IMG/VR virus record: IMGVR_UViG_2531839195_000006 | Source: a virus | Lineage: Duplodnaviria; Heunggongvirae; Uroviricota; Caudoviricetes | Reading direction: 5' to 3' (one strand) | Length of the DNA: 17,878 nucleotides | In this document: one piece after another, positions 3,657 to 6,809 of the stretch | Layout: every line of letters begins with the position of its first letter | How positions within the stretch are numbered: position 1 is the first letter of the stretch | Notes under the pieces: generated by a model | The model's database searches: none | What the model was told of the DNA's origin: nothing | What the model saw: only the letters and a program-made list of their open reading frames with translations | Translations under genes and position numbers: made by a program

Positions 3657-4129
3657 TCAGGCTGCCAGATCATCGTTTCCGATGGAAGCATAATAAGCTT
3701 TTTCTGCTTCTGCCGGAGGGATGTGGCCCAGCCTTTCCTGCAATCGTCGATTGTTATACCAGTCCACCCACGTTAGTGTGGCCAGTTCCACTTCTGCACG
3801 GTTTTTCCAGCTCTTACGGTGTATTACCTCCGCTTTGTAAAGACCATTGATGCTCTCCGCCATCGCGTTGTCATACGAGTCGCCTGTACTTCCTGTTGAT
3901 GCCAGTAATCCGGCTTCCTTAAGCCGCTGTGTGTAGGCCAGCGATACATACTGAGAACCTTTATCACTGTGATGGACCGTGCCGGACGGTCGACGGGCCC
4001 ATAACGCCTGCTCCAGTGCATCCAGCACGAATGTCGTTTCCATGGACGATGAGACCCGCCACCCCACGATGCATCCGGCAAACACATCAATGATGAACGC
4101 CACATAGACGAAGCCCTGCCATGTGCTGA
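3657..4129 (-). pseudogene. IS629 orfB, 3' portion (exon 2), DDE catalytic domain
   Basis: (WQGFVY)[99 protein letters not shown]..., the IS3-family integrase core, separated from exon 1 by the intron. Confidence 0.8.
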
Positions 4130-4130
4130 G

Positions 4131-4178
4131 TAGAGTAAGAGGCAGGGCGTAGTCGGACTATTTCCCTGCCTCTCCTCC
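4131..4178 (-). ncRNA. Group II intron domain VI with bulged branch-point adenosine
   Basis: GAGGAGAGGCAGGG pairs with CCCTGCCTCTT(A)CTC, leaving one A unpaired (plus-strand position 4136), 7 nt upstream of the candidate 3' splice site after ...TCTAC. Confidence 0.6.
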
Positions 4179-4180
4179 CC

Positions 4181-4214
4181 GAACCGGACGTGCACCTTTC
4201 AGCGCATCCGGCTC
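4181..4214 (-). ncRNA. Group II intron domain V (catalytic hairpin)
   Basis: Minus strand GAGCCGGATGCGCTGAAAGGTGCACGTCCGGTTC: 34 nt with the AGC triad, a GAAA loop and the GGTTC closing motif. Confidence 0.85.
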
Positions 4215-4219
4215 TCCAT

Positions 4220-5743
4220 TTAAATGCTGGCGAACGCCATTGCCACTTCTGTAAAGCGCGATGTATACGTGTTTCTGGTCTCCGTCCTCAGATAGGGATT
4301 ACCTTCGGGTAGCCGCCAGCGGAACAGCTTCTTGCCTTGCCCCACCAACCGGTACAGTATTTCGCCGCTGAGCTTGCCGTGATTGGTTTTACCAAATAAA
4401 ACCCACGTTTTGCTCTGACCCGGTTTCGGTGATTTACACCACCACCTCATCAGGGAAGCGATACCTGTACGGTATTTGCGGGCCAGCCAGTGAGCCAGCT
4501 TCCAGAACACGACACGGTCGATATAACTGAAGACTTTGGCCTTAAAATCAACGAACTGATAGAACATGGCCCAGCCTTTCAGTTTTCGGTTGAGTTGTTC
4601 AGCCATATCGACTTTGCTTTCACTGTAGTTGCCTGATAACAGTGCTGTCAGCGATGCGGCGAAGTTTCTGGCTTTCTCCTGCGGGATCGTTGAGACCACT
4701 CGCATCTCGCCATAACGACTGCGTTTGCGAATGATCCTGTGCCCCAGAAAGATAAAGCCGTCATTAACATGGGTGATTTTAGTCTTATCCATGTTCAGCC
4801 TGAGTTTCAGACTGCCTTCGAGCACACCCCGACACTCCTCCCTGATGGCTTCCGCCTGTGCTTTGGTGCCTTTGACGATGAGGACAAAATCATCGGCATA
4901 GCGGCAGTACGCCACCGCGGGTTTCCACTGCCAGTTTTCTCTGACCGCCGTACTTCGGCCCCGTTGGATACTGTTATTCCAGTACCACCGATCTTTTCTG
5001 GCTTTCCCGCTCAGGTAGCGCTCATGCAGGTATTGATCGAACTCATTCAGCATGATGTTCGATAATAGCGGCGATATAACACCGCCCTGTGGCACACCTT
5101 CACTGGCCGCCCGAAAGAGACCGACATCGATATGTCCCGCCTTGATGGTTTTCCACAGCAGAGTCATGAAACGTGCGTCACTGATCCTGCGGCGTACAGC
5201 CTTCATCAGCAGTCGATGATGTACGGTGTCGAAGTAACTGGACAGGTCGCCTTCAATCACCCAGCGTCCCCGGGTTTCACCACAGTCTGTGAGCTGTAAT
5301 TTCACCGTGCGGATCGCGTGGTGGACACTGCGCTCAGGCCGGAAGCCATATGAGAGCGTATGAAAATCACTCTCCCATATCGGCTCCATCGCCATCAGCA
5401 TGGCCCGCTGAACAATACGATCCCGCAACGCGGGGATACCCAGTGGTCGCAGTTTGCCGTTGCTTTTAGGGATGTAAACCCGTCTGGCGGGCAAGGGCTG
5501 GTAGTGGCCTGAGAGTAATTCATCCCTGAGGATTTGCAGCTCAACAGCCAGTCTGGCCTGTAGCATTGTTTTGCTCACGCCATCAGCGCCGGGGGTATGG
5601 GCCCCCTTTGATGAAAGCGTGATCCGCGCCGCTTCAGCCAGCCATTCTGGTTGTGTTATCAGACGCAGCAGCCGTTGAATCCGTAGGGACGGATCGGTGG
5701 CTGCCCATGTGGCAAGCTTGCGTTGCATTTCGCTGATTATCAA
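4220..5743 (-). CDS. Group II intron-encoded reverse transcriptase/maturase (507 aa, no HNH endonuclease domain seen)
   Basis: RT motifs RRVYIPKSNGKLRPLGIPALRDRIVQRAM, SYGFRPERSVHHA and YCRYADDFVLIV, followed by a maturase (X) domain. The C-terminus has no cysteine/histidine HNH signature. Confidence 0.9.
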   Translation of the reverse strand: MIISEMQRKLATWAATDPSLRIQRLLRLITQPEWLAEAARITLSSKGAHTPGADGVSKTMLQARLAVELQILRDELLSGHYQPLPARRVYIPKSNGKLRPLGIPALRDRIVQRAMLMAMEPIWESDFHTLSYGFRPERSVHHAIRTVKLQLTDCGETRGRWVIEGDLSSYFDTVHHRLLMKAVRRRISDARFMTLLWKTIKAGHIDVGLFRAASEGVPQGGVISPLLSNIMLNEFDQYLHERYLSGKARKDRWYWNNSIQRGRSTAVRENWQWKPAVAYCRYADDFVLIVKGTKAQAEAIREECRGVLEGSLKLRLNMDKTKITHVNDGFIFLGHRIIRKRSRYGEMRVVSTIPQEKARNFAASLTALLSGNYSESKVDMAEQLNRKLKGWAMFYQFVDFKAKVFSYIDRVVFWKLAHWLARKYRTGIASLMRWWCKSPKPGQSKTWVLFGKTNHGKLSGEILYRLVGQGKKLFRWRLPEGNPYLRTETRNTYTSRFTEVAMAFASI

Positions 5744-6385
5744 AGGTCTTCACCTCGTTAGGTCAGTTAATTCACGTCGCAAACACATTCAAACTGCTTC
5801 CCTTCGCCATGTAATGGGCTTTCCCCATCGCGGACTACTACGGAAGCTCCGCCAGCCAGCGCGTCATCGGAGCCATGCCCCCTTAACATCCGTCGCTGAC
5901 CTTCCCCGGTTTACCTGCCTGGACTCAGGCATACTGAGGAGGCTGCCCGTCGCACTCTTTATCCTTGCTTGCCGCAAGTTGGCAGAAGTCAGCAACGCAA
6001 GTGTGATAGACGCTGCTGCCCCGGTGTTTCGCATACATGTCAAAACACCTTCGACCGGCAGTGCTTACGTATCACTGCCAGTTCCTCCTGCACGGCCTGT
6101 CAGATCACGTAGGCCGTGGTGACGTTTTCAACCCACAGAGGCGGATTAACGGGTTCATGTTCTTCAGCCTTTCAGTACTTAACCTTGAGGATCATCTCGG
6201 CTTAGTGATCTCGCCTCAATCCCCGTTGTCAGCGGGTTACATCACCCTGCGGGCATGCCGCAGGTCACTGCCGCTCAGGTTCTCCACCGTCACACCCGGT
6301 GGGATTGTTGGGTTTCTCATCGTGAGTTACCGGTTCAATATTCCAGACAGACTCGCGGTTCATTTAAGCATCCATGCCCGCCCCG

Positions 6386-6809
6386 CATGTGCTGACGTAA
6401 GTAAAGTCAGCCACCCACAGCTGGTCAGGTCGTTCTGCCACGAACTGACGGTTTACGCGGTCGCCTGCGGCAACGGCTTTCCGGCTGATGGTCGTACGGA
6501 CCTTTTTACCCCGGAGAACACCGGCAAGTCCCATAACCGCCATGAGACGTGCCACAGTGCATCTGGCCACTCTGATACATTCCCGTAACAACTGACGCCA
6601 GACTTTACACCGTATACCTTGTGATTTTCATCGTATACGCGCTGTATCTCTTTCTTCAGCCAGTCATCGCGCTGCGCACGGGCACTGCGTTTATCCGGAT
6701 GATGTCGCTGTTGCTGACAGTGGTAATACGTTGACGGGGCAATATGCAGTTCGCTGCATAGCGGTCCGCCCCCGTACTGCTCACGCAGCTTATCCAGCAG
6801 TGGCATCAT
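6386..6809 (-). pseudogene. IS629 orfB, 5' portion (exon 1), frameshifted
   Basis: [68 protein letters not shown] continues in another frame as ...LRECIRVARCTVARLMAVMGLAGVLRGKKVRTTISRKAVAAGDRVNRQFVAERPDQLWVADFTYVST. The frame change is near 6598-6612. Confidence 0.75.

Follow-up and report, generated by a model that had tools for sequence, protein, structure and literature searches.

The stretch of DNA analysed here (IMG/VR record IMGVR_UViG_2531839195_000006; 17,878 nucleotides (nt), hereafter the window) is the complete contig AKMZ01000035.1 of a 2012 draft assembly of Shigella flexneri K-404 (GCA_000268025.1), and its make-up comprises sequence of the S. flexneri virulence plasmid (pINV), an IS629 insertion sequence (IS) that holds a group II intron, a fragment of IS600, and P22-like phage genes. 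The intron lies on the minus strand (6395..4130), nested in orfB of the IS629 element, and is identified by sequence comparison as E.c.I4 / S.f.I1 ('IntA'), an already known intron of bacterial class A, at its usual homing site. The 5' junction of the window copy departs from that of the canonical copies of this intron; the lesion has been seen in a single draft contig and probably has no biological basis.

The IS629 element and its group II intron

An earlier note on this DNA, made from the sequence alone, had placed a group II intron inside IS629 orfB, and this placement is upheld by a match to the Rfam model Intron_gpII, the ALIL pseudoknot, the IS3-family orfA and orfB genes, and the terminal repeats TGAACCGCCCCGGG. 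The element and the intron are composed as follows.

3616..7187, minus strand: IS629-like (IS3 family) element holding the intron, bounded by terminal repeats TGAACCGCCCCGGG at 3616 and 7187
6396..7187, minus strand: 5' exon (E1), with IS629 orfA and the 5' part of orfB, from sequence comparison
6735..6851, minus strand: ALIL pseudoknot, the programmed -1 frameshift signal of IS3-family elements (116 bits, Rfam)
6396..6401, minus strand: putative intron-binding site 1 (IBS1), CUUACG, the final 6 nt of the 5' exon, complementary to the loop of exon-binding site 1 (EBS1)
6384..6395, minus strand: aberrant 12-nt segment TCAGCACATGCG, in place of canonical nt 1-16 (GTGTGCCCGGAGTTCA), from alignment to canonical copies
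4130..6383, minus strand: intron body, equal to canonical E.c.I4 nt 17-2270, from comparison with E.c.I4-30 and the pINV copy
6064..6069, minus strand: putative EBS1, CGUAAG (canonical nt 331-336), in the 9-nt loop of the hairpin GGCAGUG-AUACGUAAG-CACUGCC
4220..5728, minus strand: intron-encoded protein (IEP) of 502 amino acids (aa), reverse transcriptase (RT) and maturase (X), reading frame intact (Pfam)
4181..4214, minus strand: domain V hairpin, 34 nt (Rfam match and folding)
4132..4178, minus strand: domain VI helix with a single bulged branch-point A at 4136 (Rfam match and folding)
3616..4129, minus strand: 3' exon (E2), the 3' part of IS629 orfB, whose first 10 nt (4129..4120) are TCAGCACATG

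The Intron_gpII model, which describes domains V and VI, matches 4216..4130 of the minus strand with 64.9 bits against a gathering score of 40, and folding of 4222..4130 yields a 34-nt domain V hairpin and a domain VI helix (z = -5.9), in line with the domain V and the domain VI with bulged A that had been recognized before. The bulged A at 4136 stands seven nt from the intron 3' end, and the intron terminates in ...CUCUAC at 4130. The earlier note had proposed modelling of domains I-VI; for domains I-IV, the Rfam D1-D4 group II models found no match at E<=1 in either the window or a canonical copy. Since the canonical copy was equally null, these models do not detect domains I-IV of E.c.I4. 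When models of domains I-IV were searched for at a permissive E value, the sole match was a chance one to CRISPR-DR8 (E = 0.31).

The Pfam matches of the IEP are RVT_1 (1.4e-34) and GIIM (1.3e-10) only, with neither HNH nor any other domain downstream of GIIM at E<=0.01 in the 502-aa open reading frame (ORF), which agrees with the lack of an endonuclease domain reported earlier. The nearest solved structures are those of the group II RTs LtrA and GsI-IIC RT. The intron body differs from the orthologous pINV copy at merely 2 positions, both of them private substitutions within the IEP gene.

The loop sequence CGUAAG (6069..6064) is complementary at all six positions to CUUACG (6401..6396), and on the basis of this pairing we take the two as EBS1 and IBS1; among the exon contexts seen, IS629 is the best-matching target for EBS1. 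No EBS2 could be assigned, since the exon bases at -13..-7 are varied and numerous GU-rich hexamers match them with similar scores. The exon junction reads ...D-F-T-Y|V-S-T-W-Q-G of IS629 and thus falls directly after the conserved D-x-T-Y codons of IS3-family orfB. Other copies of the intron occupy the homologous codons of at least six other IS3-family genes, and in each copy read the 5' exon ends with the codons D-(I/F/V)-T-Y of IS3-family orfB.

Identity and canonical ends of the intron

The reference copy E.c.I4-30 (NC_009786 13831-16100, coordinates taken from the supplement of PMC3522654) is 2270 nt long and starts GTGTGCCCGG. Across columns 29-2270 the window shares 99.7% nucleotide identity with it (membership threshold at least 95%). 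E.c.I4 and S.f.I1 are 99% identical to each other and form bacterial class A, an endonuclease-less ORF class (PMC3552965), and E.c.I4 'specifically targets various IS3 elements' (i.e., IS629, IS911, ISEc16, and ISEc31) in Escherichia and Shigella (PMC3522654). The class, which the earlier note had left to comparison with a reference database, can accordingly be given as bacterial class A from the identity with E.c.I4-30 and the literature.

A BLAST search of plasmids returned the same intron at >99% identity in about 1,500 records, many of them in other exon contexts. Six of the plasmid matches were read, together with ten loci of species-representative genomes, a closed Shigella plasmid, and an E. 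coli chromosome. The 17 copies other than that of the window, spread over at least seven exon contexts, are all 2270 nt long and begin GUGUGCCCGGAGUUCA (nt 1-16 being GTGTGCCCGGAGTTCA, followed by |GGGCGGGCATGG), and the 3' end of all those canonical copies is CTCTTACTCTAC (CTCTAC). The canonical 5' start was also recovered from metagenomes, where 108 contigs carry the IS629|GUGUG junction (positive control). Comparison of the canonical copies with E.c.I4-30 therefore fixes the intron ends at GUGUGCCCGG...CUCUAC, 2270 nt apart; the window copy is 2266 nt instead of the full-length 2270.

Several related copies are of note. E. coli K-12 MG1655 contains a fragment of E.c.I4, listed in the literature as E.c.I4-tr1 (1764 bp, prophage CP4-6). 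In a Salmonella Infantis plasmid (CP114004, ~1485-3749), the same IS3-family site is occupied by a relative of E.c.I4 with 85% identity, whose 5' end is GUAUACCCGG rather than GUGUG and in which no ORF is annotated; this relative may be decaying. In Candidatus Pantoea alvi and in a metagenome-assembled genome (MAG) labelled Halomonas, E.c.I4 copies have 5' and 3' exons from different IS3-family elements, an arrangement that could stem from recombination between intron copies in different ISs or from chimeric draft contigs. The presence of a gut-type intron in the 'Halomonas' MAG suggests a binning error.

The aberrant 5' junction

The sequence TCAGCACATG occurs exactly twice in the window, both times on the minus strand (6395..6386 and 4129..4120), so the identical 10-bp sequence that had been noticed at both junctions is present as described. 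Its chance expectation is 0.05 occurrences, and two copies were found in 0 of 200 shuffles. Likewise, the window contains no GUGYG at the intron 5' end: the junction reads ...UUACG|UCAGCACAUGCGGGGCGGGC, and the sequence that follows the 5' exon (...GACTTTACTTACG) is TCAGCACATGCGGGGCGGGC (UCAGCACAUGCG).

The order of the contig at the junction is E1-TCAGCACATGCG-GGGCGGGC, in which 6395..6386 duplicate positions +1..+10 of the 3' exon. This arrangement can be parsed in two ways. In the first, TCAGCACATGCG consists of 3' exon +1..+10 followed by the intron from nt 15 with the change A16G. In the second, TCAGCACATGCG plus GGGC represents +1..+17 of the G-allele 3' exon minus one G, joined to intron nt 21; the G-allele exon start of IS629, TCAGCACATGGCGGGGC, is found at loci L007, L008, L022, and L024. 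Depending on the parse, the first 16 or the first 20 nt of the intron are replaced. Intron nt 15-20 (CAGGGC) resemble exon +12..+17 (CAGGGC/CGGGGC), and the join thus falls on 4-6 nt of microhomology (GGGC / CNGGGC).

From comparison with the canonical copies and E.c.I4-30, both ends of the intron can be placed, and the splice sites, which the earlier note considered ambiguous, are not so: the 3' site lies directly after CUCUAC (4130), and the 5' site no longer exists. On the same grounds the upstream 10-mer is foreign to the intron, and the downstream TCAGCACATG (4129..4120) is genuinely part of IS629. GUGUG is among the missing bases, as is the 5' strand of the predicted closing helix of domain I (nt 4-8 paired with 379-383 in the minimum free energy fold). 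A real copy with such a lesion could therefore not be expected to splice its 5' end accurately. The earlier note had named a truncated or rearranged copy missing domain I as the outcome that would speak against its reading, and in a mild form this is what the window contains, i.e., a rearranged copy from which the 5' end of domain I is absent.

Two further interpretations of the junction were considered and rejected. An alternative 5' splice site at CAC|AUGCG has no IBS1 complementarity, changes G1 to A, and lacks the 5' strand that closes domain I. An origin by tandem duplication or slippage would put the intron 3' end, not E1, upstream of the repeat.

Uniqueness of the junction and probable mosaic structure of the contig

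The aberrant junction is absent from 72,556 plasmid records, in which the top match is the canonical form (4 nt longer), and from 5,426 complete E. coli genomes, in which the best match has 94.6% identity across the 181-nt junction probe; it was found in 0 metagenome contigs and 0 viral contigs. The 68-aa ORF spanning the junction (...WVADFTYVSTCGAGMDA) is a singleton known from this contig only. The relatives in its cluster either have the canonical continuation (...FTYGVPGVQGGHG) or stop at ...ADFTY where their contigs break, and this repeat boundary is the exact break point of many draft contigs.

Positions 1-7187 of the window correspond, with 99.7% identity, to part of the S. flexneri virulence plasmid. 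The same IS629 stands beside the same UvrD-like helicase gene in the closed plasmid NZ_CP045942 (L007), where the intron is present and has a normal E1|GUGUG junction; the plasmids of S. flexneri 7b (L022) and 3a (L023) have this IS629 without an intron, between the two copies of a 3-bp AAG duplication. Occupancy of this pINV IS629 by the intron varies by S. flexneri lineage (e.g., empty in 7b and 3a, occupied in 2a). On the far side of IS629, the window continues not into the plasmid flank but into an 85-bp IS600 end and P22-like genes, and the IS629|IS600 and IS600|phage joins are contiguous in no plasmid or E. coli genome record.

Differences private to the window, relative to orthologous copies, are unevenly distributed. 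E1 (792 nt) has five private substitutions (7022, 6981, 6769, 6579, and 6406), and the remaining ~6,380 nt have three in total: one in the unique flank (3.6 kb), two in the intron (about 2.25 kb), and none in E2 (514 nt, compared with the L023-type allele). A different IS629 paralogue, next to ipaH2.5, shares two of the E1 changes (6981 and 6769), and no database copy matches E1 in full (best 99.6%). The allele pattern of E1 indicates that E1 and the duplicated exon start derive from a different IS629 copy than the intron, E2, and the helicase flank, and this switch between paralogues coincides in the contig with the aberrant junction. Co-conversion from a donor was rejected as the source of the A at exon +13, since A at +13, along with G at +58, is already present where the site is empty, in S. 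flexneri 3a (L023).

The unique flank has only two indels, both of them homopolymer undercalls with respect to closed pINV (G7 to G6 at 2947 and A7 to A6 at 3501). Homopolymer undercalls are a signature of pyrosequencing-type consensus error, and these two are probably sequencing errors; the missing G in ATG(G)C at the junction may be of the same kind. The undercall at 2947 alters the C-terminus of the UvrD-like helicase/ankyrin ORF, which is 974 aa here and annotated as 970 aa in L007.

The host element itself is of IS629 lineage, but it is rearranged or chimeric and defective. A 4-nt deletion (GTGC) at ~6609 of the minus strand, in E1, is apparent relative to the O157 IS629/IS1203 and to L008 and is common to the Shigella copies L007 and L018; it frameshifts orfB, and the host IS is therefore defective with or without the intron. 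The 3 bp on the two sides of the IS629 in the window, CTT and CGT, do not match as a target duplication would. The element is abutted by the following feature.

7188..7272, plus strand: IS600 terminal fragment, 85 bp, abutting the IS629 end, with P22-like phage genes next

The P22-like prophage block (7258-17878) encodes, by similarity, a gp16/SLT ejection protein, Inj_translocase, portal, scaffold, capsid, and tail needle, and is ~96-97% identical to E. coli P22-like phage-plasmids. On the plasmid side, a repeat is formed by a 204-nt segment (3338-3540): in the pINV plasmids L007 and L023, an inverted copy with 91% identity lies a few kb from it.

Origin of the aberrant junction

The explanation that we favour, and consider rather likely from the sequence comparisons, is that the junction arose artefactually, through a consensus error or a mis-join at the edge of a repeat. 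The bases after E1 would then be those that an empty IS629 shows at this position, namely 10-17 nt of the 3' exon start (TCAGCACATG(G)CGGGGC), and the intron would resume at the first spot where the empty and the occupied branches align, i.e., at the 4-6 nt match. Reads from the many empty IS629 copies may have outvoted the intron-bearing reads just beyond the repeat boundary, or two repeat contigs may have been butt-joined. The setting for such an error would be a draft assembly of the pyrosequencing type, running across stacked repeats from plasmid through IS629, intron, and IS600 to phage.

Several points weigh against an artefact. De Bruijn assemblers cannot create a junction that is unsupported by reads; a literature search found no paper describing the assembly method of K-404. 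The join is also neat, at a microhomology of the sort that real template switching or end joining yields as well. Furthermore, the G that matches exon +13 differs from the A in the contig's own 3' exon, so reads from G-allele empty copies would have to dominate locally. Finally, Shigella chromosomes are sparse in the collections searched, and the uniqueness of the junction is thus unproven for the genus Shigella.

It is less likely, and on balance doubtful, that the junction is genuine and stems from aberrant mobility, the intron having been abortively copied into an empty IS629. Synthesis of the complementary DNA (cDNA) would have broken off some 15-20 nt before the intron 5' end was reached, with a premature switch from intron nt ~20, and the nascent strand would have re-annealed via CNGGGC/GGGC to the 3' exon start or joined an unremoved or filled-in bottom-strand overhang, leaving a 5'-truncated intron flanked by a 10-17 nt target duplication, much like an insertion of the long interspersed nuclear element (LINE) type. 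The match of CAGGGC (nt 15-20) to exon +12..+17, which puts a microhomology right at the join, and the intact RT ORF are consistent with this course of events, and the origin of E1 from an IS629 copy other than the pINV one fits a separate insertion. Imprecise junctions of this kind are documented for experimental retrohoming of linear Ll.LtrB, with introns truncated at the 5' end, microhomology, added nucleotides, and switching of the template to the bottom-strand overhang (PMC3280974). However, the junction is a singleton across all collections searched, the imperfections of the join (one missing G and an A to G change) are left unexplained, and the IEP has no endonuclease for the staggered cut at +10. 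Moreover, E2 and the helicase flank are of pINV type and E1 is not, which would require a second recombination through the intron, and the contig contains errors of the pyrosequencing type.

A rearrangement after insertion is improbable. Under this scenario, illegitimate recombination or a replication template switch would have led from an empty IS629 (exon +17) to an occupied copy (intron nt 21), fusing replicons. The coincidence of the paralogue switch (private E1 alleles and foreign flank) with the junction would be accounted for, and the many IS629 copies on pINV and the chromosome would offer partners. Nevertheless, with 792 nt and 514 nt of near-identical homology beside the join, a homologous crossover that leaves a normal junction is far likelier, and again the junction is a singleton in the plasmid, E. 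coli, and metagenome searches.

That the intron naturally lacks GUGYG and the 10-bp repeat is an unusual splice-site arrangement, as the window sequence alone would suggest and as the earlier note implied by treating the unusual 5' end as a trait of the intron, has hardly any probability left, since it is refuted by comparison: all other >99% identical copies start GUGUG and have no junction repeat, and the 5' 10-mer replaces intron nt 1-16 rather than adding to them.

Significance and comparison with known systems

As it stands, the locus is of little import, given that E.c.I4 in IS629 is catalogued and the preference of the intron for IS3-family sites is published. It does provide a lesson in data quality, namely that in IS-rich draft assemblies the first bases past a repeat boundary may come from the wrong branch and mimic exotic biology. 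Should the junction prove genuine, which we think unlikely, a natural bacterial intron without an endonuclease would have been inserted by an incomplete, reverse-splicing-independent, or abortive route. To our knowledge, a LINE-like outcome (a 5'-truncated intron with a target duplication) has otherwise been seen only in engineered systems. With its 5' truncation, microhomology, and target duplication, the window would in that case preserve a rare natural trace of group II retrohoming that was completed in an error-prone way in a bacterium, and it would be relevant to how group II introns and retrotransposons without long terminal repeats (non-LTR) are linked mechanistically. Even so, it would be a single dead copy that encodes an intact RT/maturase, not a new class of element.

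The closest known system is E.c.I4/S.f.I1 itself, with which the window copy shares the RT and X domains of an IEP without endonuclease, the EBS1 loop, and the insertion after D-x-T-Y of IS629 orfB; the difference is that nt 1-16 (GUGUGCCCGGAGUUCA) give way to TCAGCACATGCG, with a length of 2266 rather than 2270 nt. Group II introns normally insert by reverse splicing and produce no target duplication. The junctions of linear Ll.LtrB retrohoming (White & Lambowitz 2012, PMC3280974) resemble that of the window in having a truncated 5' end joined at microhomology and target sequence copied in. Those events, however, were induced in Drosophila with an endonuclease-containing IIA intron, whereas the window copy is an endonuclease-less intron in a bacterial host and its junction is known from draft contig sequence alone. 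With non-LTR (LINE) retrotransposons the window copy has in common a formal layout, in which a short target repeat flanks an element without its 5' end, but the repeat in the window replaces intron sequence and one of its two copies is imperfect beyond 10 nt.

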